DNA of 64,000 bases. Source: Alphaproteobacteria bacterium. Its GTDB lineage: Bacteria > Pseudomonadota > Alphaproteobacteria > SHVV01. The DNA lies in NCBI GenBank assembly GCA_965261735.1, contig OZ253470.1, positions 3,936,001 to 4,000,000 on the forward strand, given 5' to 3'. The number at the start of each line of letters is the position of its first letter. Position 1 is the first letter of the stretch. A program made the position numbers and the translations under genes. Shown here piece by piece: positions 2,685 to 57,430 of the stretch. Under the pieces are notes generated by a model. That model was not told the DNA's origin. It was given only the letters and a program-made list of their open reading frames with translations, and did no database searches.

Positions 2685-4763
<2,079 letters not shown>

Positions 4764-6203: not shown

Positions 6204-7316
6204 GATCCTTGCCTATCCGGTTAACGCCCATGACCGCTACATGTAGGGTGCCGCCACTCTCCCGAGTAAAGCTCGGCATAGGTTGGAGCAGAGGTGTCGC
6301 CCGCGATGCCGAGCAATGAGCGGAAGGCGTTGAACGGGTAGAACCGCCTGTTGAAGCGGAAGGTGAACTCGTTGAGGTAGGCTTGTAGGTGCTGGTGGCT
6401 AACGCCGTGGTGGATACCGATCAGCCACGTCTTCAGGTTGGCGAAAACCAGATGGATGATCGGCAGGTATTGCTCGGCAACCTCTGGATCACCACACTCG
6501 GCAACAGCGAAGTGCTCATAGCCGCGCTTCCCGAGGCCAGCATAGCCGCTCCAATCGTCAGTAACGATCAGCGATCGCGGCGCGACGGTGCTCTCGACGA
6601 ACCCACAGAGCGACTCGGCGCTACGGTCGAGCACGACGGCGAGCCGAACGCGTCCGGCATAGCGTCCGTCTTTCCGGTTGTCGAGCTTGGTGCCCGGCTT
6701 TCGATGACGCACCTCGATGGCACAGGAGACGGGAACCTTGTGGTGAACACCACGGCCTTCCCCACGCGTTCGCCCGCCAACCCAGGTTTCGTCCACCTCA
6801 ACATGGTTCTTGGGCTGTCCACCGATCCTGTCTTGGTTGGGCCGCACCATGCCCGAGCGGAGCTTGTGGAGAATTTGAAAGGCCGTCTCGTAGCGCGAAA
6901 GACCAAGTTGCCGCTGAAACTGCACGGCGGACATGCCGGGCGTCTGACTGGCGACCAGATAAGCGGCCCAGAACCAGACGTTCAGCGGAGTGTGGCTACG
7001 CTCCATCACTGTTCCCACCGTCAGCCCGGTGTTCTGGCGGCACTTGCGGCAGCGCAGGACGCCAGGGCGGTTTTCAAAGTGGAACGGCTCTCCCGCCGTG
7101 CCGCAGTGCGGGCAGGCAAAGCCGTCTCCCCAGCGGGCTTTCTCCAGGTAGGCGGCGCAGGCCGCATCATCGGGGAAAAGTCGCTGGAACTCGGGTAGCG
7201 AATGCGGGAATGGGAGATCGGCGCGGTCGAGAACATCCATGGCGCGCTCCCCTATATCCGGGTTGCGCCCATTCTAGCCCTAGTGGGTGTGGGTGTCAAC
7301 CGGATAGGCAAGGGTC
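6204..7316 (-). mobile_element. IS1595-family insertion sequence
   Basis: Terminal inverted repeats GAYCCTTGCCTATCCGGTT at both ends enclosing a transposase; no flanking direct repeat seen. Confidence 0.88.
6221..7240 (-). CDS. IS1595-family transposase (Zn ribbon plus ISXO2-like DDE domain)
   Basis: CPHCG...CRKC Zn ribbon, VEVDET, VTDDWSGY, YLNEFTFRFNRR. Confidence 0.93.
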   Translation of the reverse strand: MDVLDRADLPFPHSLPEFQRLFPDDAACAAYLEKARWGDGFACPHCGTAGEPFHFENRPGVLRCRKCRQNTGLTVGTVMERSHTPLNVWFWAAYLVASQTPGMSAVQFQRQLGLSRYETAFQILHKLRSGMVRPNQDRIGGQPKNHVEVDETWVGGRTRGEGRGVHHKVPVSCAIEVRHRKPGTKLDNRKDGRYAGRVRLAVVLDRSAESLCGFVESTVAPRSLIVTDDWSGYAGLGKRGYEHFAVAECGDPEVAEQYLPIIHLVFANLKTWLIGIHHGVSHQHLQAYLNEFTFRFNRRFYPFNAFRSLLGIAGDTSAPTYAELYSGEWRHPTCSGHGR

Positions 7317-7337
7317 ATTCATGCCCCCGTCCGGAAT

Positions 7338-7432
7338 CACCCCCTCCCCATCCCTCCCCCATCGAGGGGGAGGGGCCGTGGCGTCCGCCATCGAGGGGAG
7401 GGGCAGCGGCAGCACCCATCGAGGGGAGAGGC
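7338..7432. repeat. REP-like palindrome with partial tandem copies
   Basis: CCCTCCCCC-ATCGA-GGGGGAGGG hairpin followed by two more CATCGAGGGGAG units. Confidence 0.55.
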
Positions 7433-7491
7433 CATGTGCGCGCCGTGCGGGAGGGGGGCGACCTGTTGGCGTCAAAAAGCATGCGCAACCC

Positions 7492-8496
7492 TCAGCGGAT
7501 GGCGCGGCCGATGGGGCCGTTGCGCAGGATGTCGTCGAGGATCGCGGCCTTGGTGCGGGCGATGATGCGATCGCCCTCGGTGCGCAGCACCGCGACCGCC
7601 GCCGGGTTCGCGCCGCGGAAGTCGAAGTTGAAGGTCTGGTGGAAGTTGACAACGGTGCGGGCGGTTGCCGCAGCGGCGCGCCCTGCGCCCGCGAGCCGGT
7701 TGTGGGGCACGATGGCGCCGGCGGCGGCGGGCACGAACAGCTCGGGCCCCGCCTCGCCCACGAGATAGGGGATGCGGGGCAGCACCGGCCCGCCGTGCTG
7801 CTTCGGTAAGAGGCTGGTGAGGCCGCCCCTGAGCAGATCCGAGAGCGGCGCGACGACGCCGACGCGCAGCATGTCGCTCGCGATGTCGTCGAGGATGCTG
7901 GAGGCGATGTCGCGCAGGCGCTTGAACTCGAACTCGTTCGTCCGCACCATGTCGCCGACCGCGCGGGCCACGCGGCCCATGCCGCGCTCCATGATGGTCG
8001 TGACGGCACCCACGGCCTCGGCAACGGGCCCCACCATCGCCGCATCGAGCTGGCCGAACGTCCCGTTGATGGCGCCGAGCATCGCGGGCATGGATTTGTC
8101 GATATCCTCTTGGAGCTTGCGAAAGCCCACGCTCGCCGCCGTGGTGTCCAGCTGCACGCCCTTCAGGGCCTCGCGCAGGGGCTCGTACACCGCCTCGGTG
8201 TCGCGCCGCAGGCCCCTCGAGGATTTGCGTAGCTTCTCGCGCGCTTCCTCTAATCCCTCGGTCGGAATCCGAGGAACGTGCGCCTCCGCCGGCGCACCAC
8301 GAGGCGCGTCCTTGCCGCCCGCCGGCTTGAGGCCGGCGAGGCCCTGGCGCAACCCCGCGAGGCTCTGGCCCAGCGGCGCCAACGTCGCCTTCATTTTCTC
8401 GACCGCCTCGGCGACCATCTTGTGCGCCTGGTCCAAGTCGGACTTGAGACGCGGCGTGTTCAACGTTATTTCAACGGTTGTTTGGTCGTTTGCCAT
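7492..8496 (-). CDS. Short phage/GTA tail tape-measure-like protein (orphan)
   Basis: Helical Ala-rich body and C-terminal HGGPV...YLVGEAGPELFVP...G.IVP motif typical of tape-measure C-termini. Confidence 0.7.
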   Translation of the reverse strand: MANDQTTVEITLNTPRLKSDLDQAHKMVAEAVEKMKATLAPLGQSLAGLRQGLAGLKPAGGKDAPRGAPAEAHVPRIPTEGLEEAREKLRKSSRGLRRDTEAVYEPLREALKGVQLDTTAASVGFRKLQEDIDKSMPAMLGAINGTFGQLDAAMVGPVAEAVGAVTTIMERGMGRVARAVGDMVRTNEFEFKRLRDIASSILDDIASDMLRVGVVAPLSDLLRGGLTSLLPKQHGGPVLPRIPYLVGEAGPELFVPAAAGAIVPHNRLAGAGRAAAATARTVVNFHQTFNFDFRGANPAAVAVLRTEGDRIIARTKAAILDDILRNGPIGRAIR

Positions 8497-8766
8497 CGGT
8501 GCTCCTGCTCACGGCCCATCCATGGGTGCCCCGGCCAACCGGTGCCCCTCGATACCCCGATCCCCTGCGCCGGCGATCGTGGCGGGCCGAACGATGCGTT
8601 ACGTGTGTTCTAGTGCTGCACATGGTACGTTACGCATCGCTCTATGTCAATATCTTGTGCCGCACGCGGTGCCGCGGGCGCCGTCGGCGTTGACCGGATC
8701 GGCGCGCGGCCTTAGGTTGGCGCCGCGTTAGGCGGGCGCATCGAGTCGTGGGGCAGCGCCCGTTCC

Positions 8767-9324
8767 TTGATGACGAGACATGAGACCATGGAACCGCCGC
8801 AGGGGTTTCATCGCGCCGTGCGCGTCGATCGCATGGGCGCGGCCGGCGCCGATCCCGAGTTACGCCGCATCACCGCGTCGGCCGCCGAGCGCCGTGCGCT
8901 GGCCGAACGCTTCGGGCTCCTTGCCCTGGATGAGCTCGCCGCCCAAGCGCGGCTGTGGCGCCAGGGCTCGCGCGTGCACCTGCGTGTCAATTTCACGGCC
9001 GCCGTGGTACAGTCCTGTGTCGTCACGCTGGAGCCGGTATCCGAGCACATTGCGCACACGTTCGAGCGCGCCTACCTTCCACCCGCAGCCTCGCCGGGGG
9101 CGAGTGCCAAGGAGGTGCGGGTCGCGATCGACGGCGACGAGGCCGAGCCCCTGGGCGGCAACGAGATCGACCTCGGCGAAGCGGTGGCCGAGGAGCTGGC
9201 GCTGGCACTCAACCCTTATCCGCGCACGCCGGGCCTCGCGTTCGCCGGATACGAGGAGGGCGAAGCGCCGCGAAAGAGCGCGTTTCGCGCGCTCGAGGGT
9301 TTGAAGGAAAGGTCGGGGCGCTAG
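8767..9324 (+). CDS. DUF177/YceD family protein
   Basis: QSCVVTLEPV and IDLGEAVAEELALALNPYPR motifs; directly upstream of rpmF. Confidence 0.9.
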   Translation: MMTRHETMEPPQGFHRAVRVDRMGAAGADPELRRITASAAERRALAERFGLLALDELAAQARLWRQGSRVHLRVNFTAAVVQSCVVTLEPVSEHIAHTFERAYLPPAASPGASAKEVRVAIDGDEAEPLGGNEIDLGEAVAEELALALNPYPRTPGLAFAGYEEGEAPRKSAFRALEGLKERSGR

Positions 9325-9402
9325 CACATCCACGCGAGCACAGCGCCGTCGTTCATCATCAGGGTGCCGCGTGGCACCGCGGCCCAGCATCCGGAAGGCA
9401 TC

Positions 9403-9588
9403 ATGGCAGTACCGAAAAAGAAGGTCTCGAAATCGCGCCGCGACAAACGGCGCTCGCATCACGCGTTGGCGGGCGCGGGCTATGTCGAGTGTTCGAACTG
9501 CGGCGAACTCAAGCGGCCTCATCACGTGTGCGCCGCCTGTGGTCAGTATGACGGTCGCGAAACCATCGAGGCGCAAGGCGCCGCTTAG
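9403..9588 (+). CDS. rpmF: 50S ribosomal protein L32
   Basis: [19 protein letters not shown], CxxC...HHVCxxCG. Confidence 0.97.
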
Positions 9589-9621
9589 TCGCCGACCACG
9601 ATTGCCCTCGGGACGCAAGGT

Positions 9622-10674
9622 TTGACAGCTCCGCTGACCATCGCTCTCGACACCATGGGGGGTGATCGCGCTCCCGAACTGGTCATCAAGGGCATCTACA
9701 TCGCCCACCTGCGGCGACCGGACGTGCGTTTTCTCCTGGTCGGCGATCGCGCCCGCATCGAACCCATGCTCGAGCGCTATCCACGCGTTGCCGAGTGCAG
9801 CGAGGTCCGCCACACGGACGAGGTCGTCGGTGATGCCGACAAGCCCTCGCAGGCGCTGCGCCGCGGCACCCAATCGAGCATGCGGCTCGCTATCGACGCC
9901 GTTGGCGCGGGCGAGGCCGCCGGCGTGGTGTCCGCGGGCAATACCGGGGCCCTGATGGGGATGGCGCGTTTCGTGCTCAAAACGCTGCCCGGCATCGACC
10001 GTCCCGCCATCGTCGGCTTCTTCCCGACCCAGCGCGGCGAGAGCGCCATCCTCGATCTCGGCGCCAACGTCGAGTGCGACGCCGAGACGCTGGTGCAGTT
10101 CGCGGTCATGGGGGCGGCCTTCGCGCGTATCGTGCTCGGGCTCGAGAAGCCCAGCGTCGGGCTGCTCAACGTCGGCTCCGAGGAGCTCAAGGGCCACGAC
10201 GCGGTCAAGACGGCGGCGCAACTCCTGCGCGGTGCCGATTTTCCCATGGACTTCTACGGCTTCGTCGAGGGCGACGATCTCGGCACCGGAACCGTGGACG
10301 TTTTCGTGACCGATGGCTTTACCGGCAACGTCGCCCTGAAGACGGCCGAGGGGACGGCGAGGCTCTACACGAGCTTCCTCGCTGCCGCGTTCCGCCGATC
10401 GCTGTTCTCGCGCCTCGGCTACTACCTCGCCAAGCCGTCGATCGATGCGCTGCAAAAGCGCGTCGATCCGCGGGTTTACAATGGCGCCATGTTGGTCGGT
10501 CTCAACGGCATTGTCGTCAAGAGCCACGGCGGCACGGACGCGATGGGCTTTGCCAGCGCCGTCAGCGTCGCCGTCGACATGGTGCTCGGGCAGATCAGCG
10601 AGCGTATCGTCGCCGACTTCAGTCGCTACGGGGCATCGGCGGCGGCGCCCGCCGACCGGCTCGCCGCGTCCTAG
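9622..10674 (+). CDS. plsX: Phosphate acyltransferase PlsX
   Basis: DTMGGD, SAGNTGAL, DGFTGNVALK, VKSHG motifs. Confidence 0.96.
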   Translation: MTAPLTIALDTMGGDRAPELVIKGIYIAHLRRPDVRFLLVGDRARIEPMLERYPRVAECSEVRHTDEVVGDADKPSQALRRGTQSSMRLAIDAVGAGEAAGVVSAGNTGALMGMARFVLKTLPGIDRPAIVGFFPTQRGESAILDLGANVECDAETLVQFAVMGAAFARIVLGLEKPSVGLLNVGSEELKGHDAVKTAAQLLRGADFPMDFYGFVEGDDLGTGTVDVFVTDGFTGNVALKTAEGTARLYTSFLAAAFRRSLFSRLGYYLAKPSIDALQKRVDPRVYNGAMLVGLNGIVVKSHGGTDAMGFASAVSVAVDMVLGQISERIVADFSRYGASAAAPADRLAAS

Positions 10675-50117: not shown

Positions 50118-51721
50118 CCGCCCTCGCCAGCCGCGGCCGCCTCGGCCGGCTCGAAAAATGCGACGAGCCGGTTCTTCTGTAGTTTGCCGGTCGAGGTCAA
50201 CGGCAGCGCCCCGGCGCCAACGAAGCGGAACGCGCGCGGCACCTTGTAAGCGGCGAGTGACTCGCGACAGAAGCGGCGCAGCTCGTCGGGCCCGACGCCG
50301 TCCTTCTCGGCCAGCACGATGACGGCGCCGAGAATCTCGTCACGCTCGGCATCGGGCACGCCGACGACATAGGCCTGATCGACCGCCGGGTGCGATGCCA
50401 GGATCTCCTCGACCTCGACGGGCGCCACGTTGATGCCGCCCGTTTTCACCATCTCCTTGAGGCGGCCGCGGAAGAAGAGCCGGCCCTCGGCATCGAGCAG
50501 CCCGAGGTCACCGGTGAGGAAATAGCCGTCGGCATCGAACGCGGCTGCGTTCTTGTCGGCATCCTTGTAGTAGCCGACGGTGACGTAGCCCTTGACCTTG
50601 ATCTCGCCGACCGCCCCTTCGGGCAGACGCGCGTGCGTCGCCGGATCGGCGATGACGATCTCGGTCCCCGGCAGGGCTTTGCCGATGGATTCGGTGCGCA
50701 GCTCGATGGGGTCGCGGCCGTCGGTGACGTTGCTGTTGGCGTAGGTTTCGGTGAGGCCATAGACGTTGCAGATCTCGGGCACGAGATCGATGGCACGGCG
50801 AAGCTGCGCCGGCGTACCCAGCGTCGCCCCTGTACGCAGGCTCGACAGGTCGCGGGCGGGGCGGTCCGGGTGCTCGGCGATGGCCAGCACCATGTTGGGC
50901 GTTGCGTAGAGCACAGTGCAGCGCTCGCTCTCGATCAGCTCCATCGCGACGCCCGCGTCGAAGCGCTCCTGAAGGACGAACGAGCCGCCGTGCGTGAGGA
51001 CCGCGAACAGCGCGTTCTCGCAGCCAAAGCCCCAAAACAGGGGCACCGCGAGCCATACCCGGTCGGCTTCGCTGAGGTGCTGGCGCTCACCGATGCTCCA
51101 CATGTTCTCGATCAGCGCGAAGTGCTGCAGCTGCACGCCCTTGGGCGTCGAGGTCGAGCCCGAGGTATAGAGGAGGTAGGCGACGTCTTCGGCGACTACG
51201 GCCGCCTGGGCGGCATCGATGTCGGCATCGGCGATCGCGGCGCCGCGCACGCGCAGCCCGGTGAAGGCGATGGTGCCCGCGTGGTCGCTCTCGCTCAAGC
51301 AGATGATGTGCTCGAGCAGCGGCAGGCGCGCGCTGCCGGGGCCGATATCGCGCACCATGGCGAGATAGTCGTTGCCGAGGAAGCGGTCGATCAGGATCAG
51401 GGTGCGCGCATCCGAATGGTGCAGCTGGTATTCGAGCTCGCGCGCCGTGGCCCAGGTGTTGACCGAGACCATGGTCGCTCCGAGCAGGGTGATGGCGAAG
51501 GCGGAGAGCAGCCATTCGGGCCGGTTGCCCATGAGCAGCGCGACCTTGTCGCCGCGGCGGATCCCGATGTCGTGCAGGCCCTTGGCGATGTCCCGCGTTT
51601 CGGCGCGGAGCTCGGCGTAGGTGGTGCGCGTGCCGCCGCCGATCACCGCCTCGCGCTCGGGATAGCGCGCGGCCATCTCGTCGATGAGATCGGCAATCGT
51701 ACGGCTTACCGGCATGCGCAT
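50114..51721 (-). CDS. Acyl-CoA synthetase / AMP-binding protein
   Basis: YTSGST.TPKG, YGLTE, TGDLG, GKLQK. Confidence 0.92.
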   Translation of the reverse strand: MRMPVSRTIADLIDEMAARYPEREAVIGGGTRTTYAELRAETRDIAKGLHDIGIRRGDKVALLMGNRPEWLLSAFAITLLGATMVSVNTWATARELEYQLHHSDARTLILIDRFLGNDYLAMVRDIGPGSARLPLLEHIICLSESDHAGTIAFTGLRVRGAAIADADIDAAQAAVVAEDVAYLLYTSGSTSTPKGVQLQHFALIENMWSIGERQHLSEADRVWLAVPLFWGFGCENALFAVLTHGGSFVLQERFDAGVAMELIESERCTVLYATPNMVLAIAEHPDRPARDLSSLRTGATLGTPAQLRRAIDLVPEICNVYGLTETYANSNVTDGRDPIELRTESIGKALPGTEIVIADPATHARLPEGAVGEIKVKGYVTVGYYKDADKNAAAFDADGYFLTGDLGLLDAEGRLFFRGRLKEMVKTGGINVAPVEVEEILASHPAVDQAYVVGVPDAERDEILGAVIVLAEKDGVGPDELRRFCRESLAAYKVPRAFRFVGAGALPLTSTGKLQKNRLVAFFEPAEAAAAGEGG

Positions 51722-51950
51722 GGCGCGCGGCCTCCCTCAAACCGCGTTTCCAAAGCGGTCCTCATTGTGCCGCGAAAGACGGCGCTCGAACAACACGTGG
51801 CGCGCGCCTGCGTCACATGGCTAAGGCGATCGGTATCAACTTCGTGTCGGCCTCACCGCGGCGAGCATGGCGGCAAGGCATCGAGTCGAGCCTGTGATTG
51901 ACGGAGTCATGAGTTGAGGGCCATATCCGCCTTATAGACGGAACGTACGC

Positions 51951-53161
51951 ATGACCCAGGCTCCTACCGTGATGGCGGACGCGGCGCGGCCCGCGCAACG
52001 CAGCGTTGCTGCGCTCGGGATCGCCATCCTGCTCGGTGGCGTCGCGTGGCTTGGTGCCGAGAGCTGGCAGCGCGCGGCCCTGCTCGTCGTCGGCGGCCTT
52101 CTCGGCATCACTCTTTATCATACGGCCTTCGGCTTCACCGCCGCCTACCGCCGCGCGGTCCTCGAGCGCGACGTCTCGGGGGTGAGCGCGCCTCGAGCGC
52201 GACGTCTCGGGGGTGAGCGCGCAGCTGCTGATGCTCGCGGGCGCGATGCTGCTGTTCGCGCCCATCCTGGCGCAGGGGGCGGCGTTCGGGCACGGCGTCG
52301 TCGGGGCGGTGGCGCCCGTCGGCGTCCAAGTGGCGGTGGGGAGCTTCCTGTTCGGGCTCGGCATGCAGCTCGGCGGCGGCTGCGGCTGCGGCTCGGGGAC
52401 CCTCTATACGGTGGGTGGCGGCAGCCCACGCATGGTGGTGACGCTTCTTGCTTTCTGCGCCGGCGCGTTCTGGGGCAGCCTCGACATGGATTTCTGGGGC
52501 CAGACCCCGAGCCTGCCCAGCATTTCGCTGGCCGCGTCCTGGGGTTGGGAGGTAGCGCTGCCCGTTCAGCTCGGCGCGCTTGTCCTGATCTGGATCGCGC
52601 TGCGCGCCTACGCCCGCGGCGTGCCTGTGGGATGGCGGGCTCGGCTGGCGGCGGCTCGTGGCCGGGCCGTGGCCGCTGCTGTTCGGCGCGGCGATGCTGG
52701 CCGTCCTCAACTGGGTGACGCTACTCATCGCCGGGCACCCCTGGACCATTACCTGGGCGTTCAGCCTCTGGGGCGCGAAGGCGGCGGTGCTCGCGGGCTG
52801 GGACCCGGCTGGAAGCGCGTTCTGGACCGGCGGCTTCCAGCAGGCGGCGCTCGAGCGCGGCGTGCTCGAAGACATCACCTCCGTCATGGATATCGGCATC
52901 GTTCTCGGGGCCCTGACGGCCGTCGGCCTGGCCGGCCGCTTCGCGCCGGTCTTCAAGCTCCCGGGCCGCTCGCTCGCCGCCGCGGTCCTCGGCGGACTGT
53001 TCATGGGCTACGGCGCGCGGCTCGCGTTCGGCTGCAACATCGGTGCCTTCTTCAGCGGCGTCGCCTCGACCAGCCTGCACGGCTGGCTGTGGATCCTGTG
53101 CGCGGTGCCCGGCAATATTCTCGGCGCCCGGCTACGGCCGCTCTTCGGCCTCGCGCCCTAG
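51951..53161 (+). pseudogene. YeeE/YedE sulfur-compound transporter, frameshifted
   Basis: FGFTAAYR, GMQLGGGCG.G, GARLAFGCNIGA motifs in three frames; 31-bp tandem duplication at 52160-52221. Confidence 0.85.
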
Positions 53162-54004
53162 GGGAGTTCGCGCACGAGCCGGAAGCCGATGAGAATGTGC
53201 TTGAGCGCCAGCGGGCGCCCATGCCGAGCCGCCGGCCGGTACACGCCGCAGCCCTTGTCGTCCCAGGAGCCACCCTTGACGATGCGGCGGCCCTGGCCCG
53301 CGGCTGTCGCTGTCCATTCGAAGACCTGGCCAGCCGCGTCGAGCATGCCAAACGGACTCGCGCCGCCGGGATAGCGGCCCACCGGGACCGTGTCGAAGGG
53401 TCCCAGGTCGTGGCTGTTCAGCAACCCGGGCTCGAAGCGCTCGCCCCAGGGAAAACGCCAACCCTCGCGTCCCCGCGCCGCCTTTTCCCACTCGTCCTCG
53501 CTGGGCAGGCGCCAGCGCGCGCCGGTCTCCGCGCTCAGCCACGCGGCGTAGGCCGTGGCGTCCTCGTAGGAGACGAGAACCACCGGATGATCGGCCCGCC
53601 CGGGTGGGGACCTGCCGTCGACCCAAGCGTGGCGGCGGGTCCGGACGTAGGGGTGGATGAGGCCATAGCCGGCCCAGGTCGCGGCGTCGACGCCGGGCGC
53701 CGGGTGCCCGGTCGCGGCCACGAACGCGGCGTAGGCGGCGTTGGTGATAAGCGTTGCCGTGATCGCGTAGGCGCTCGTTTCGCGCTCGCCGCGCGCGCGT
53801 TCACTCTCGTACCAGCGCCCCTCGCGGGTGCGGCGGTGGCCGTAGGCCGCCTCGTCGAGGCGGTAGGCGGCTTCGCGCTCGGCGCGATCCGACCGCGACG
53901 GTGGCAGGAATCCCGATATCTTGGCCGTTCGCTGCCGCCGCGGCGTTCCCGACCAGGATCGCGCCCAGCACCGCCGCGCGAGGCAAGACGAGCCGAATTT
54001 GCAT
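53158..54004 (-). pseudogene. Exported FGE-sulfatase (SUMF1) domain protein, frameshifted near 53895
   Basis: Signal peptide in one frame; HPVV.VSY.DA..Y..W, RLPSE.EWEKAARG, KGGSW, IGFRLV in another. Confidence 0.8.
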
Positions 54005-54189
54005 CAGCGCCTCTGCGACTTGCCCTCACGCCACCCCCGGAATAACCACGATACGTGCGAAGCCTCGTTCACTGCGCTACCTCACGACAAGTTGAAGGCA
54101 AGTGACTTCACCGGCGCCCAAATCTTTGCCACGTTGACCGCCAAAACCCGCGCTGAGCAGCGGTTCACCTGTGCAAAGGAATCACCCCC

Positions 54190-54546
54190 GTGAAAAGCAA
54201 GCTTCTGTCATCCACTTTCATCTCCTTGCTGTTTGGTGCCGGAATCGCGGCGGCAGGAGTCGCGATCACCGCCAGCCCCGGGTATGCGGCAGCCTCCCCG
54301 AGCCAGCACATGAGCGTGCTGCCTGCGGCGAAGGCGAGGTCGGGGAGCGTGCAAGTCGCCGCTTGTAATCCGTGCGCGAGCGCGAGCAAGTGTGCGGATG
54401 CGGCCATGAAGACGGCCTCGGCGTGCAATCCGTGTGCGGCCAAGAACCCGTGTTCGGCCAAGAAGGTGGCGGCTGCGTGCAACCCATGCGCGGCGAAGAA
54501 GGTGGCCGCAAATCCGTGCGCGGCCAAGAATGTCGCGTGCAACTAA
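54190..54546 (+). CDS. Small exported Cys-rich protein with NPC repeats
   Basis: Signal peptide (PGYA), five NPC motifs, ten Cys; RBS AAAGGA upstream. Confidence 0.8.
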   Translation: MKSKLLSSTFISLLFGAGIAAAGVAITASPGYAAASPSQHMSVLPAAKARSGSVQVAACNPCASASKCADAAMKTASACNPCAAKNPCSAKKVAAACNPCAAKKVAANPCAAKNVACN

Positions 54547-54572
54547 CATACTGATGTAAGGGAGGCGACGCC

Positions 54573-55634
54573 GTGAGGCTCCAGAAGTCCAAGCTCCTTT
54601 CCACCACCGTCATTCCGGCCCTCGTCGGTGCCGGCATCGCGGCCGGCGGCGCCATCGCTTTCGTGGCGCCTGGCTACGCTTCCGGGTCGAGCCAACAGAC
54701 CTCCGGCGCGTTGCCCGCGGCCAAGCCCAATCCCGGCATCATCCGGCTAGCGGCGTGCAACCCGTGCGCGACCGCCGCCGCGTGCAATCCGTGTGCGGCC
54801 AAGAAGAATCCTTGTGCGGCCGCTGCCGCGTGCAATCCGTGTGCGGCCGGCGCCACAGCATCCAAGTGTATGATCCCGCGCCTGCAAACGGCGGCACTGA
54901 GTGCGTGCAACCCGTGCGCGGCTAAGAAGAACCCGTGTGCGACCGCTGCCGCGTGCAACCCGTGCGCGGCCAAGAAGAACCCGTGTGCGACCGCTGCCGC
55001 GTGCAACCCGTGTGCGGCCAAGAAAAACCCCTGTGCGACCGCCGCCGCGTGCAACCCGTGCGCAGCCAAAAACCCCTGCGCCGCGGCGAAGGCGTGTAAT
55101 CCGTGCAATCCGTGTGCGGCCTCGGCCGGTGCCGAGATCACCGTGGCGGAAGCTGGGGCAGCCTATGACTGCCTGATCGATGAGATGGCCGGCGGCTATG
55201 ACAGGGCCTCGCTCAAGCTGGTCGCCAACTATCGGAGTTGGACCAACGTCGCTGCGGCGCCTTACCAGTCGGCCACACACGGCAGCCGCTACGTCAACAA
55301 CTATGCCAACGCGACCGGAGCGGCGAGCTACAAGAAGTTCGAGGATGTGGGCACGATGCCGGCCGGCTCGGTCCTCGCCAAGGACAGCTTCGTCGTCAAC
55401 GCCAATGGCACCACGGCGGCCGGCCCGCTTTTCGTCATGGAGAAGCGCAACGCCGGGTTCAACGCCGACTCTTTCGACTGGGCCTATACCATGATCAACC
55501 CGGACGGCACGGTCTTCGGTGTCACCAAGGGACAGGGCTCGGCCAACGTCGAGTTCTGTATCGAATGCCATGTGAGCATGGCCGACGACCAGGATTCGCT
55601 GTTCTTCCTGCCCGAGGAGTCCCGCGTTAACTAA
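54573..55634 (+). CDS. Exported CNPC-repeat protein fused to a cytochrome P460-family domain
   Basis: 14 NPC motifs, then GSVLAKDS, LFVMEK, W.Y and C-terminal CIECH; RBS GGGAGG. Confidence 0.82.
   Translation: MRLQKSKLLSTTVIPALVGAGIAAGGAIAFVAPGYASGSSQQTSGALPAAKPNPGIIRLAACNPCATAAACNPCAAKKNPCAAAAACNPCAAGATASKCMIPRLQTAALSACNPCAAKKNPCATAAACNPCAAKKNPCATAAACNPCAAKKNPCATAAACNPCAAKNPCAAAKACNPCNPCAASAGAEITVAEAGAAYDCLIDEMAGGYDRASLKLVANYRSWTNVAAAPYQSATHGSRYVNNYANATGAASYKKFEDVGTMPAGSVLAKDSFVVNANGTTAAGPLFVMEKRNAGFNADSFDWAYTMINPDGTVFGVTKGQGSANVEFCIECHVSMADDQDSLFFLPEESRVN
54903..55080 (+). repeat. 48-bp coding tandem repeat (ACNPCAAKKNPCATAA)
   Basis: Units start at 54903, 54951, 54999 and 55047 (last one partial). 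Confidence 0.9.
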
Positions 55635-55823
55635 GTCGGTTCTCCGACCGGCCCCACAGGGCTGGCTACCGACACACAGCGCCGCGGGCCGAGTGATTGG
55701 CCCGCGGCGTTTGTTTTCGCCGGGCGACAAGAATGAGTTTCGCAGGCGCGGTCGCGGCCCTGGACGCCGGGCTACCAATCCCCTTGAATGGCGTCGCGGG
55801 ATGCCTGCGAGGACGGACGCACG

Positions 55824-56543
55824 ATGAACGATCTCAGTCGGCAGCCGCGCGATGCCCTGATGCGGATGGTCGCCGCCGGTGAGCGCATCCTCGAATGCTA
55901 CCGTGTCCTCAAGAAAACGCAGGACAACGTCGTCGGCGAACTGCTACGCGGCCAGGGCGAGTTCTTCGAGTGGGACCACTATCCCAAGGGGGATATCTAC
56001 GACCACGTAACCCACTCGCAGTACTACTACCACGCCCATCCCACCGAGCTGCGGGGCGGCGAGCACGGCCACTTCCACACCTTCCTCCGCCCCAAGGGTA
56101 TGCCGCCGGGGATCGCGCCCGCGCCATTGCCCGACCTGGAATTGCCTGAAGACGAAGACGACGCGCTGTCACATCTGATCGCGATTTCGATGAATCCGGC
56201 CGGCTACCCTATCCGCCTCTTCACCACCAATCGATGGGTAACGGGCGAGGTCTGGTACGTGGCCGACGATGTTATTCGCATGCTCGACGATTTTGCGATC
56301 GATCTCGCGCGGCCGTCGTGGCCGGCCAACCTTTGGGTGAGCGACATGCTGCGCCTGTTCCGCCCGCAGACAGAAGTGTTGATCAGGCGCCGCGACGACG
56401 CGGTCGCCGCCTGGCGGGAGGGGCACGCCGGCAGCGACGTCTACGAGGACCGCGACTTCGAGATCGCCTCGTCGACGTCGATCTCGGTTGAGGCGCAGAT
56501 GCGTCGGCTCAGAGAGGCGCTGAAGGCGAAGGACACGAGCTAG
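55824..56543 (+). CDS. His-rich hypothetical protein (DUF6969-like)
   Basis: HYP.GD, YYYHAH, EHGHFHTF, HLIAIS, LFTTNRWVT motifs; family label from memory. Confidence 0.65.
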   Translation: MNDLSRQPRDALMRMVAAGERILECYRVLKKTQDNVVGELLRGQGEFFEWDHYPKGDIYDHVTHSQYYYHAHPTELRGGEHGHFHTFLRPKGMPPGIAPAPLPDLELPEDEDDALSHLIAISMNPAGYPIRLFTTNRWVTGEVWYVADDVIRMLDDFAIDLARPSWPANLWVSDMLRLFRPQTEVLIRRRDDAVAAWREGHAGSDVYEDRDFEIASSTSISVEAQMRRLREALKAKDTS

Positions 56544-56557
56544 CCGCCGGTCGCGGA

Positions 56558-57430
56558 CTATTGTGCACCGCCGATCCCGTATTTGGGGATGATCGGGTCC
56601 TTGGTGCGGGCGACAATTCCCTGCGGGCGGAAGATCATCATCGCGACGACCAGAAGCCCCTCGACCATGAGGCGGTACTCGGGCGGCACCCCCGCGAATT
56701 GAAGTATCCACTGCAGCGAGTAGAGGATGCCGGCGCCGGCCACCGGGCCCCAGAAGGACTGGACGCCGCCGAGAATGGGGGCGAGGACGATGTCGATCGA
56801 GTTGTAGAACCCGAACTCGACGGGCGAGATGGTGCCGGCGCGGTGCGCGTAGAGAGCGCCCCCGATGCCGGTCAGGCCGCACCCCAGCACCCACGCCAGC
56901 ACCTTCATGCGGCGCACGTCGACGCCGCGGGTCGCCGCCGCCACCTCGTTGTCGCGCACCGTACGGAAGGCCAGGCCAAAGCGTGACCGATCGAGGCGGT
57001 AGACAAAGAAGATCGCGAGCGCCGCCACGACCAGAACCTGAGGCCACTCGGTCTCCATCGGAATGGTGCCGAAGCCACCGGCACCGCCGATGTAGTCGAT
57101 ATTGAGCCAGAGCGTGACGAGGGCCTCGCTCAGCGCGAAGGTGGCGATCCCGAGATAGATGCCGCGCAGCTTTAGGCCCAGCAGGGTGCCGACCAGTAAG
57201 CCGGTCACCGCGCCGACCAACCCACACAGCGGGATCGCGAGGTAGTAGGACAGCCCCCACTTGACCACCAGGATGGCCGAGCTGTAAGCGGCGATGCCTA
57301 GGAATGCGGCGTGCCCGAATGAGACCTGCCCGGACGTGAGGATGATGTAGACGCCGAGCGCCGGCAGCAGGTAGACGCCGTAGTCCGTGAGGATATCGAC
57401 GATCAGGTTGACCCACACGAACAGGGGCAC
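56558..57430 (-). CDS. Branched-chain amino acid-type ABC permease (LivM-like)
   Basis: GQVSFGHAAF, LRGIYL.IAT, RDNE.AA. Confidence 0.88.
   Translation of the reverse strand: MPLFVWVNLIVDILTDYGVYLLPALGVYIILTSGQVSFGHAAFLGIAAYSSAILVVKWGLSYYLAIPLCGLVGAVTGLLVGTLLGLKLRGIYLGIATFALSEALVTLWLNIDYIGGAGGFGTIPMETEWPQVLVVAALAIFFVYRLDRSRFGLAFRTVRDNEVAAATRGVDVRRMKVLAWVLGCGLTGIGGALYAHRAGTISPVEFGFYNSIDIVLAPILGGVQSFWGPVAGAGILYSLQWILQFAGVPPEYRLMVEGLLVVAMMIFRPQGIVARTKDPIIPKYGIGGAQ

Follow-up and report, generated by a model that had tools for sequence, protein, structure and literature searches.

Bufferins and oxazolins are Sec-exported, copper-binding cysteine peptides that are modified by MNIO enzymes. A locus that follows a comparable plan with other proteins lies in the 64-kb stretch of a complete 5.03-Mb alphaproteobacterial genome that we analyzed (G000:C1:3936001-4000000, hereafter called the window). 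From left to right, it comprises genes for a YeeE/YedE-type protein (YeeE, + strand), a protein with the fold of the formylglycine-generating enzyme FGE (FGE-like, - strand), a 118-aa cysteine-repeat protein (+), a 353-aa fusion of cysteine repeats with a cytochrome P460-type heme domain (+), and a DUF6969 protein (+) (Table 1). As in the bufferins and oxazolins, repeated cysteine units are found behind a Sec-type signal peptide, recognized by eye, and are accompanied by genes for proteins of unknown chemistry. In contrast with them, there is no MNIO gene nearby, the candidate enzymes are the DUF6969 and FGE-fold proteins, and one of the "precursors" is a 353-aa heme protein. The sole PF05114 (DUF692/MNIO) match of the genome (G000:C1:2324661-2325170) is 1.66 Mb off, and none of its 13 radical SAM (PF04055) matches falls inside the window. 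The best explanation for this locus seems to be that a conserved, undescribed module of the alphaproteobacterial cell envelope is present here in partly decayed form and would operate as in the working model presented below, a reading to which we assign a probability of roughly 40%.

Several other described systems share traits with this locus. The catalytic copper-binding cysteine pair of aerobic FGE (SUMF1) has the form C-x4-C and precedes RYR..AAR. The FGE-like protein shares with it the FGE-sulfatase fold (PF03781), a predicted location outside the cytoplasm, a partner protein with C-x-P-x units, and a cysteine-bearing loop behind GGS(W/Y). The SUMF2 loop that aligns with it has no Cys, and we take this position to be the site where FGE holds its copper-binding pair at a wider spacing. 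It differs from FGE by its C-x-x-C pair and by its partner, which is not a sulfatase, has no Arg, and carries its motif dozens of times per protein rather than once. Another periplasmic FGE-fold protein without the canonical FGE site, PvdO (the "dihydropyoverdine dehydrogenase"; PDB 5hha, E 1.8e-13), acts in the oxidative maturation of a peptide product, but the module protein reaches only 52 bits against the PvdO equivalog cut-off of 500, is not accompanied by pyoverdine genes, and has its own invariant CxxC. The cytochromes P460 and c'-beta share with the fusion the superfamily fold, a C-terminal CxxCH and, at the position of the P460 cross-link, an invariant Lys, but not its N-terminal cysteine-repeat extension of 120-300 residues; within this superfamily, the fusion may resemble NsP460, which does not oxidize NH2OH, more than NeP460, having Gly at the distal carboxylate position in a weak alignment. 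A 2025 review of cytochromes P460 makes no mention of such a fusion, nor of a cysteine-rich or N-terminal extension (PMC11928373). Finally, like SoxYZ and YeeE-YeeD (TsuA-TsuB), the module places a cysteine-bearing exported protein beside a YeeE-family channel in a fifth of its loci; unlike them, it has many NPC cysteines in place of one carrier Cys, mostly lacks YeeE (broken in the window), and shows no SoxZ, YeeD/TusA, or rhodanese among its recurring neighbors.

Cysteine-repeat proteins and the families that recur beside them

Both repeat proteins of the window are built of NPC(AAK) units behind similar hydrophobic N-termini and are paralogous in that region (53% identity over residues 5-77). 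The 118-aa protein contains 10 Cys, 5 NPC, and 3 CNPC and has no Pfam or NCBIfam match, whereas the 353-aa fusion contains 26 Cys, 14 NPC, and 8 CNPC; NCBIfam provides a name neither for these two proteins nor for DUF6969. Searches of the PDB with phmmer, using the whole fusion and its stand-alone paralogue, returned chance matches only. The repeats are not chance low complexity, because a database search gave at least 950 proteins of the same architecture (E <= 0.001, with 8000 candidates scored), and 482 confirmed stretches were found in contigs from one genome per species. The 12 relatives that were read all have the same layout (12/12), in which the conserved N-terminus (K.KLLSTT.IP.LVGAG) is followed by one repeat block, a conserved S.KC.VPRL..AA motif, another repeat block, and the heme domain, and the only source name among them was "cytochrome P460 family protein" (Magnetospira sp. 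QH-2). Members of the family contain up to 92 Cys (median 35), and they include small NPC-repeat proteins of 88-141 aa, precursor-like in appearance. Over 88 open reading frames (ORFs) of the family, the second place of C-x-P-x is N 1277 times and the fourth is C 1432 times, followed at the fifth place by A (815), N (406), G (185), and R (4). The repeat block of the fusion evolves through gain and loss of units, since the copy number of its 48-nt repeat (Table 1) varies between near-identical strains, with one unit fewer in the public run X5 (which skips from 54923 to 54972). A protein 95% identical to the fusion (P0001) is 17 residues longer.

To look for partners of these proteins, we used the best 80 of the 482 fusion loci, almost all from Alphaproteobacteria by title (including Rhodospirillales, Kiloniellales, and Sneathiellales), a set that is biased to closer relatives of the window and whose members are related to each other. 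With the proteins of the window as tblastn queries, DUF6969 was found in 47 of the 80 loci, the FGE-like protein in 46 (including one partial match and one at 34% identity), and YeeE in 18, compared with 4 loci for LivH and 5 for AMP-ligase, two unrelated neighbors that served as controls. We also applied an unbiased clustering to all ORFs of at least 70 aa located within -8 to +7 kb, setting aside the fusion itself and antisense shadows. DUF6969 (46/80) and the FGE-like protein (45/80) were followed by small NPC-repeat proteins (17), YeeE (16), MsrB/SelR (12), cytochrome c (12), a DSBA-like protein (11), and an exported 182-aa protein without Pfam match, called c21 (10). None of the neighbor families present in at least 9 of the 80 loci was an MNIO, as judged by Pfam scans for SelR, Cytochrom_C, DSBA, Sulf_transp, FGE-sulfatase, c21 (no match), and DUF6969, and by eye for the rest. 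Flanks of 3 kb or more on each side were available for 59 loci; of these, 34 have both the FGE-like and DUF6969 genes, 2 have FGE-like alone, 3 have DUF6969 alone, and 20 have neither.

These families recur in three gene orders (arrowheads give orientation): YeeE> [c21>] FGE< fusion> small> DUF6969>; MsrB< DUF6969< FGE< fusion> DSBA-like>; and DUF6969< FGE< fusion> cyt c>. The window follows the first of them, except that the small gene precedes the fusion and that c21 is absent, and the divergent arrangement of FGE-like and repeat genes is also present in the loci of its relatives. Where it occurs, c21 lies between YeeE and the FGE-like gene (L012, L013, L015, L022, L025, L026 at 4194-4742, L029, L046, L075, and L081); in the window, the stops of these two genes overlap.

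The association can also be followed at the level of genomes. Among 401 sampled genomes of the class, DUF6969 (PF22308) was detected in 89, including the unpublished genome G245, the P460 subfamily domain (E <= 1e-30) in 54, and the FGE-like protein (E <= 1e-60) in 32. All but one of the FGE-like genomes also have DUF6969 (31/32, for a base rate of 89/401) and 27 have the P460 domain; 44 of the 54 P460 genomes have DUF6969, and all three families are found in 27 genomes. In at least 7 of the 31 genomes with both FGE-like and DUF6969 genes (G002, G054, G070, G149, G312, G375, and G392, according to our own comparison of place tables) the pair is unlinked or far apart, so that the association is not due to linkage alone. 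In G002, the nearest family-level relative, YeeE and DUF6969 are adjacent (C2:887285-889067) and the FGE-like gene and P460 fusion lie on another contig (C4:1725854-1728494). Among the FGE-like genomes without P460 match, G227 and G312 have 3 and 7 exact NPCAAK-coding units beside DUF6969 or the FGE-like gene, counted without examining the ORFs, and G048, G054, and G056 gave no exact NPCAAK match.

We also examined the neighborhoods of DUF6969 itself. Within 1.5 kb of the gene in the 30 best-scoring DUF6969 loci, the window included, an FGE-like gene was found in 14, NPC-repeat or P460 sequence in 11, cytochrome c in 6, and YeeE in 3, and 6 had none of these. In 20 further loci, hand-picked from long contigs and mostly without adjacent FGE-like gene, the sole recurrent partners were P460-family ORFs (7/20) and cytochrome c (4/20); a dense exported Cys-repeat ORF was present within 2 kb in 7 of them, or 9 if P460-family ORFs are included, in a search that misses peptides shorter than 40 aa.

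Taken as families, the conserved core thus consists of DUF6969, an NPC-repeat protein that may or may not carry P460, and an FGE-fold protein whose CxxC is invariant. YeeE is an accessory, found in about a fifth of the loci, and the P460 domain looks like a frequent but dispensable fusion. We consider it very probable that the module is real and functionally linked. Under the opposite view, there would be no system at all: the genes would be neighbors by shared ancestry only and the FGE-fold protein would do something unconnected with them, perhaps in immunity or as a structural component of the periplasm. The compared genomes are indeed related, a terminator-like hairpin parts the fusion gene from DUF6969 in the window, and the FGE fold serves diverse, unrelated functions (PorK/GldK, PvdO, ToxD), including type VI immunity, for which FGE-like proteins are reported in a preprint (10.1101/2021.05.21.445229). 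Nevertheless, the recurrence of the three families in three gene orders and orientations, their co-occurrence in the same genomes even when unlinked, and the rarity of the control families at the same loci make this view very improbable. The more specific idea of a type VI immunity gene was rejected, as type VI genes do not appear among the recurring neighbors of the 80 loci.

A second NPC-repeat/P460 fusion gene, 82-85% identical, is found 0.55 Mb away in the same genome (G000:C1:4540995-4541927, - strand; 7993-9084 of locus L008), without FGE-like, DUF6969, or YeeE genes alongside. It is flanked by two copies of one transposase-like ORF (L008 5414-6319 and 13457-14146) and adjoins another transposase-like ORF (6570-7589) and a 392-aa, desaturase-like membrane ORF (9184-10362); the transposase and fatty-acid desaturase labels come from sequence read by eye. 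This second gene may sit on a composite transposon.

Heme domain, FGE-like protein, and DUF6969

The C-terminus of the fusion (residues 218-344) matches PF16694, Cytochrome_P460 (E 1.8e-10; 41.7 bits for a cut-off of 27). Its AlphaFold2 model (pLDDT 93.3) has as top Foldseek matches a cytochrome c'-beta (7ead, E 8.9e-07) and McP460 (6hiu, 3.5e-06), followed among others by 7s5o, 2je2, and 6amg; the 18 superfamily chains listed range from E 8.9e-07 to 1.7e-03, all matches at E <= 0.002 belong to the P460/c'-beta superfamily, and the next, unrelated one has E 0.1. A profile of 46 heme domains could be aligned, although weakly (E 0.0016), with the NeCP-beta structure 7s5o, and there the invariant Lys of the LAKDSF motif (K87 of the domain, Lys270 of the protein) pairs with Met79, with an offset of 20 that was checked at Ala109. 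According to Table 2 of the P460 review, Met79 of NeCP-beta is the equivalent of the cross-linking Lys70 of NeP460, Lys78 of McP460, and Lys106 of NsP460 (PMC11928373). The assignment of Lys270 therefore combines one weak profile alignment with a published table. Because of this invariant Lys at the cross-link position, the domain is classified here as P460-like and not c'-beta-like, and it may form the cross-link. The distal carboxylate position (Glu96/Asp102) pairs with a near-invariant Gly in the same weak alignment, next to an insertion; five residues ahead of this Gly stands a Glu that is also near-invariant (E107 of the domain).

The heme domain raises the possibility that the module handles nitrogen oxides, with the P460 heme binding NO or NH2OH, the tethered thiols serving as reductant or S-nitrosation sink, and the FGE-like and DUF6969 proteins as accessories. 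The fold, the CxxCH, and the invariant Lys all fit cytochromes P460, whose reactions involve an electrophilic {FeNO}6 intermediate that a nucleophile attacks (PMC11928373, section 4). Several observations make this proposal improbable: the position of the distal carboxylate, which NH2OH oxidation requires, aligns with Gly (in the weak alignment just mentioned), the module also occurs without the P460 domain, nir and nor genes are not among the recurring neighbors of the 80 loci, and an FNR/NnrR-type box (TTG-N8-CAA) was detected in only 2 of 39 intergenic regions between FGE-like and repeat genes, 3 loci with overlapping ORF calls having been skipped.

The genome encodes two further P460-like proteins, at G000:C1:2303236-2303775 (- strand) and 888055-888627 (+ strand), with 46% and 42% identity to the heme domain of the fusion. 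The former, of 218 aa, lacks a repeat block, stays below the PF16694 cut-off with 24.7 bits, and adjoins a luciferase-like monooxygenase and F420 biosynthesis genes. Radical SAM genes located 1.3-3 kb from it were considered and dismissed as unrelated, as they correspond to F420 genes (CofH-type double radical-SAM, CofC, CofD).

The FGE-like fragment of the window matches PF03781 with 113.8 bits (E 1.4e-32), compared with 137.4 bits for an intact homologue, and is 73-74% identical to intact homologues of 292-328 aa over 53892-53167, in one frame. The aligned family is 53-74% identical to a reference homologue (L090), and the subfamily is present as a single copy in the genome (451 bits; next best 118). 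All 36 homologues that were aligned share its signature, GGSWDD.GCG[VI]CRPAARH, without exception. A hydrophobic N-terminal segment, read by eye, suggests that the protein is exported. It is not a canonical FGE: its Cys pair is C-x-x-C and the motif of its partner lacks Arg. We also predicted the complex of the FGE-like protein of locus L026 (residues 26-292) with its cognate small NPC protein (30-95); the score, 0.01 for a mark of 0.32 and without controls, is uninformative either way.

DUF6969 covers practically its whole family profile (PF22308, E 1.6e-84, 282.9 bits for a cut-off of 27, profile positions 2-201 of 201) and has no signal peptide. Its most conspicuous trait is a set of seven invariant His together with several acidic residues (H64, H82, H84, H93, H95, H97, H129, E61, E92, and more, in 41 sequences). 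Although its AlphaFold2 model is confident (pLDDT 88.7, pTM 0.89), the best match was at E 0.17 against PDB sequences and E 0.62 in Foldseek, and a wide VIA-align search reached Z 5.6 over the 66 residues of a helical hairpin, under the tool's own meaningful level. By its model, DUF6969 has no detected structural relative, which we do not take as a claim of a new fold. A search for DUF6969 fusions in longer proteins found two proteins, both uninformative.

This combination of residues could also be that of an unmodified, metallothionein-like buffer of the periplasm, in which the repeats would bind Cu(I) or another soft metal, the FGE-fold protein would be a copper partner, and DUF6969 a cytoplasmic metal sensor or chaperone. 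CxxC is a classical Cu(I) motif and FGE a copper enzyme, and the very high Cys density of the repeat proteins and the seven invariant His of DUF6969 would agree with such a function. Still, the periplasm normally oxidizes CxxC pairs, no recognized copper or metal resistance gene is found among the neighbor families present in at least 9 of the 80 loci, and the P460 heme would be left unexplained, so that we regard a simple metal buffer as unlikely.

Gene decay in the window and in near-identical strains

The YeeE and FGE-like genes of the window are convergent, with both stop codons inside a palindrome (53158-53161), and both are broken. We compared them with Logan contigs of four public runs: X1, which is probably the source sample and hence not independent, and X5, X6, and X7, which stem from three further studies and have near-identical sequences. 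Three genotypes were found: intact (X6 and X7), with two lesions (X5), and with four lesions (the window and X1) (Table 1). A 2761-nt contig of X1 is the same as the window over 52193-54953, with no difference or gap.

In YeeE, PF04143 matches two pieces (E 1.6e-17, 64.5 bits, and E 1.2e-30, 107.5 bits) that stay well under the NCBIfam TsuA/YedE cut-offs. A tblastn search with an intact homologue (L032, 389 aa) reads the gene in three segments, in frames +3, +1, and +2, and a single ORF of about 390 aa is not present in the window; identity with the intact homologues of the other loci is 45-72%. The first frameshift corresponds to a 31-bp tandem duplication, absent from X5, X6, and X7 (joint from 52159 to 52191, one contig per run) and spanned in X1 by a 59-nt contig (52162-52220) that shows no difference, although with 24 nt on one side, under the 31-nt threshold. 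The second is an 11-nt deletion, which coincides with the frame change seen by tblastn (52605 to 52646). A third change in this dead gene, relative to X5-X7, is an in-frame insertion of 6 letters at 52376, in the Gly/Cys-rich loop (QLGGGCGCGSGTLY in the window, QLAGGCASGTLY in a homologue).

In the FGE-like gene, the frame break at about 53893 coincides with a 26-nt deletion, and the 26 letters present in X6 and X7 encode, as read by eye, the missing conserved strand of the FGE domain; no intact reading frame exists in the genome. In addition, the second Cys of the invariant C-G-[VI]-C is replaced by Tyr, whereas X5, X6, and X7 carry T>C at 53240, which makes the Tyr codon TAC a Cys codon (TGC). 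The broken state of both genes is very probably genuine, and the lesions, by comparison of these sequences, are lineage-specific and predicted to be inactivating. An earlier reading of this DNA from its letters alone (hereafter the sequence-only reading) had foreseen that the FGE gene would need repair, as one frameshift and the loss of the invariant Cys now confirm, but had taken YeeE as whole, overlooking its split over three frames. All the other parts that it described (ORFs, domains, paralogy, and the overlapping stops) are where it had placed them, and it was right that DUF692/MNIO and radical SAM genes are missing from the vicinity.

In comparison with X5-X7, the fusion gene shows 5 synonymous and 1 non-synonymous differences, and DUF6969 shows 3 synonymous ones plus 1 non-synonymous difference seen only in a contig of 2.3x coverage. 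The repeat genes and DUF6969 are intact here and appear to be under purifying selection. The loss of the FGE-like and YeeE genes with retention of the repeat genes and DUF6969 suggests that the pair formed by repeat protein and DUF6969 is the more basic unit, in agreement with the distribution of DUF6969, which is found in more genomes than either of the other core families. Another broken copy of the module may exist in a complete genome (G392:C1:1993698-1994357), where the P460 match is split between profile positions 2-97 and 98-171, with some 150 nt separating the two parts.

The state of YeeE bears on a further alternative, a sulfur relay in which the repeat cysteines would carry sulfane sulfur or thiosulfonate as SoxY does, YeeE would move thiosulfate or a related compound, and the P460-type heme would oxidize the bound sulfur. 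YeeE adjoins the module in 16-18 of the 80 loci and DUF6969 in 3 of the 30 DUF6969-centered ones, the pair YeeE-DUF6969 stays together in G002 with the FGE-like and P460 genes elsewhere, and MsrB and a DSBA-like protein recur. However, YeeE is absent from most loci and dead in the window, where the repeat genes appear to remain under purifying selection; MsrB and the DSBA-like protein are confined to one architecture that may represent a single clade; and Sox, rhodanese, and TusA are not among the recurring neighbors of the 80 loci. A sulfur relay seems to us quite unlikely. Like the metal buffer and the handling of nitrogen oxides, it would account for part of the accessory genes but not for the rest.

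The surroundings of the module look unrelated. To its left, Pfam gives a LysR regulator, an SMP-30 lactonase, and an AMP-ligase; to its right, the ORF list reads as branched-chain ABC transporter genes. The hairpin between the fusion gene and DUF6969 is the sole match of the terminator scan, a match count no higher than in shuffled sequences; the two genes may thus be separate transcripts here, despite their adjacency and same orientation. A sigma-70 consensus scan of 51700-56800, intergenic region included, found no promoter-like site. Among 33 intergenic regions between FGE-like and repeat genes (60-700 nt), the most shared 7-mer occurs in 10 loci and the most shared 10-mers in 5, which exceeds shuffled sequences, yet fits the close kinship of some loci.

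Table 1. Coordinates of the module and of its features in the window (position 1 is the first letter of the window)
Feature	Position	Strand	Evidence or detail
YeeE/YedE-type (Sulf_transp) pseudogene	51951..53161	+	PF04143 on two pieces; three frames: ~51951-52190, 52192-52605, 52646-53161
31-bp tandem duplication, first YeeE frameshift	52155..52216	+	Repeat search: two copies, spacing 31, 94% alike
11-nt deletion site, second YeeE frameshift	52620..52630	+	X6 and X7 have 11 extra letters behind 52624; window, X1, and X5 without
FGE-fold (FGE-sulfatase domain) pseudogene	53158..54004 (start approximate)	-	PF03781; two frames: 53801-54004 (signal-peptide ORF), 53158-53892
Tyr codon TAC at the second Cys of invariant C-G-[VI]-C	53239..53241	-	Cys in 36/36 homologues, Tyr in window
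26-nt deletion site, frameshift in FGE-like gene	53890..53900	-	X6 and X7 have 26 extra letters behind 53894; window, X1, and X5 without
Divergent intergenic region between FGE-like and repeat genes, 185 bp	54005..54189	.	ORF coordinates
Predicted exported NPC(AAK)-repeat protein without heme domain, 118 aa	54190..54546	+	ORF; repeats ~54364-54543
Predicted exported NPC-repeat/cytochrome P460-type fusion, 353 aa	54573..55634	+	Signal or anchor ~54573-54683, repeats 54756-55115, heme domain 55122-55631
48-nt (16-residue) tandem repeat in fusion gene, 3.5 copies	54903..55069	+	Tandem Repeats Finder: period 48, 94% matches, score 292
Lys270 codon, position of the P460 heme-lysine cross-link	55380..55382	+	Invariant in 13/13 and 46/46 sequences
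CIECH heme c attachment motif (Cys329, Cys332, His333)	55557..55571	+	Invariant 13/13, same columns 46/46
Terminator-like hairpin between fusion gene and DUF6969, 15 pairs, 11 G-C, T-rich tail	55678..55711	+	Terminator scan
DUF6969 protein, 251 aa, alternative start 55824	55788..56543	+	PF22308

Working model and significance of the module

In the working model that we favor, the cysteine repeats would be both the working part and the substrate of the module. The FGE-fold protein would be a periplasmic copper- or thiol-dependent oxidase acting on the repeat cysteines, and DUF6969 a metalloprotein that acts on, or senses, these repeat proteins while they are still on the cytoplasmic side, ahead of export. 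The product would be a thiol-derived polymer carrying metal or sulfur and tethered, in most species, to a heme that binds small nitrogen oxides. Its logic would be like that of the Sec-exported metallophores that belong to the peptides made by ribosomes and modified after translation (RiPPs), but without MNIO. An enzyme-substrate relation is the simplest reading because the conserved partners look enzyme-like, one with an invariant Cys pair and the other with an invariant His cluster. To our knowledge, the oxidation of Cys in C-x-P-x-R is the only protein-directed reaction of the FGE fold, and the C-N-P-C of the repeats fits the first four places of this target. Since C-N-P-C is abundant, action of the FGE-like protein on the repeat cysteines can be put forward tentatively, whereas formylglycine as the resulting modification is doubtful, since Arg is nearly absent. 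Going one step further, DUF6969 in the cytoplasm and the CxxC FGE-fold protein in the periplasm might be two new maturation enzymes that convert exported poly-Cys proteins into a modified polymer of a new kind, such as poly-formylglycine, a derivative with cross-linked thiols, or a chain loaded with metal or sulfur, tethered to a P460 heme in most species; we regard this as possible rather than probable.

Several results weigh against this model. The repeat genes persist intact in the window without a working FGE-like gene, which argues that the repeat proteins may not need it; 20 of the 59 full-flank loci have neither FGE-like nor DUF6969 genes nearby, and DUF6969 occurs without FGE-like gene in 58 of the sampled genomes. 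The neighborhood counts derive from the closer and mutually related loci described above, and related genomes are not independent, so that Fisher P values overstate the association. Regarding the predicted chemistry, the Cys pair departs from the FGE spacing, the Arg of C-x-P-x-R is missing in the repeat partners (R only 4 times at the fifth place), and many repeat units are K-N-P-C without an upstream Cys. Many FGE-fold proteins are not Cys oxidases, and the nearest solved relatives by sequence are ToxD (E 1.5e-24), CalU17, SUMF2, PvdO, and OvsA, true FGEs coming at E 9.5e-09 to 3.9e-05. The equivalogs of this fold in NCBIfam (PvdO, EgtB, OvoA, SenA, and GldK) score 17-52 bits for cut-offs of 350-500, with a 187-aa fragment as query. 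Lastly, the signal peptides and hydrophobic N-termini were judged by eye.

None of the described systems fits the module, which departs from canonical FGE, from MNIO-modified RiPPs, and from the named FGE-fold equivalogs in their defining traits. A full-text literature search, subscription journals not covered, found no paper on DUF6969, on cysteine-rich P460, on P460 with formylglycine, or on periplasmic CNPC repeats. The sequence-only reading had presented the locus as a candidate undescribed system of five families and had set beforehand their co-occurrence in other genomes as its test. The families do co-occur and no paper on the module was found; they are, however, unequal partners, with YeeE at 16-18 of 80 loci and P460 dispensable, and the YeeE and FGE-like genes are dead in this very strain.

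If the three core families cooperate, they would represent an unrecognized and common biochemistry of the alphaproteobacterial envelope, given the presence of the fusion in 482 genomes at species level and of DUF6969 in 89 of the 401 sampled from the class. This would provide the first function for DUF6969, a new substrate class and possibly new chemistry for the FGE fold, and a physiological context for the P460-type heme proteins of non-nitrifiers, relevant to NO and N2O turnover. The decay seen in the window also offers natural mutants, as near-identical strains with none, two, or all four of the lesions that break the frames or the CxxC can be directly compared. Should the reading with two new maturation enzymes be true, the module would be a protein-scale analogue of the RiPP metallophores, based on entirely different chemistry and distributed across a fifth of Alphaproteobacteria.

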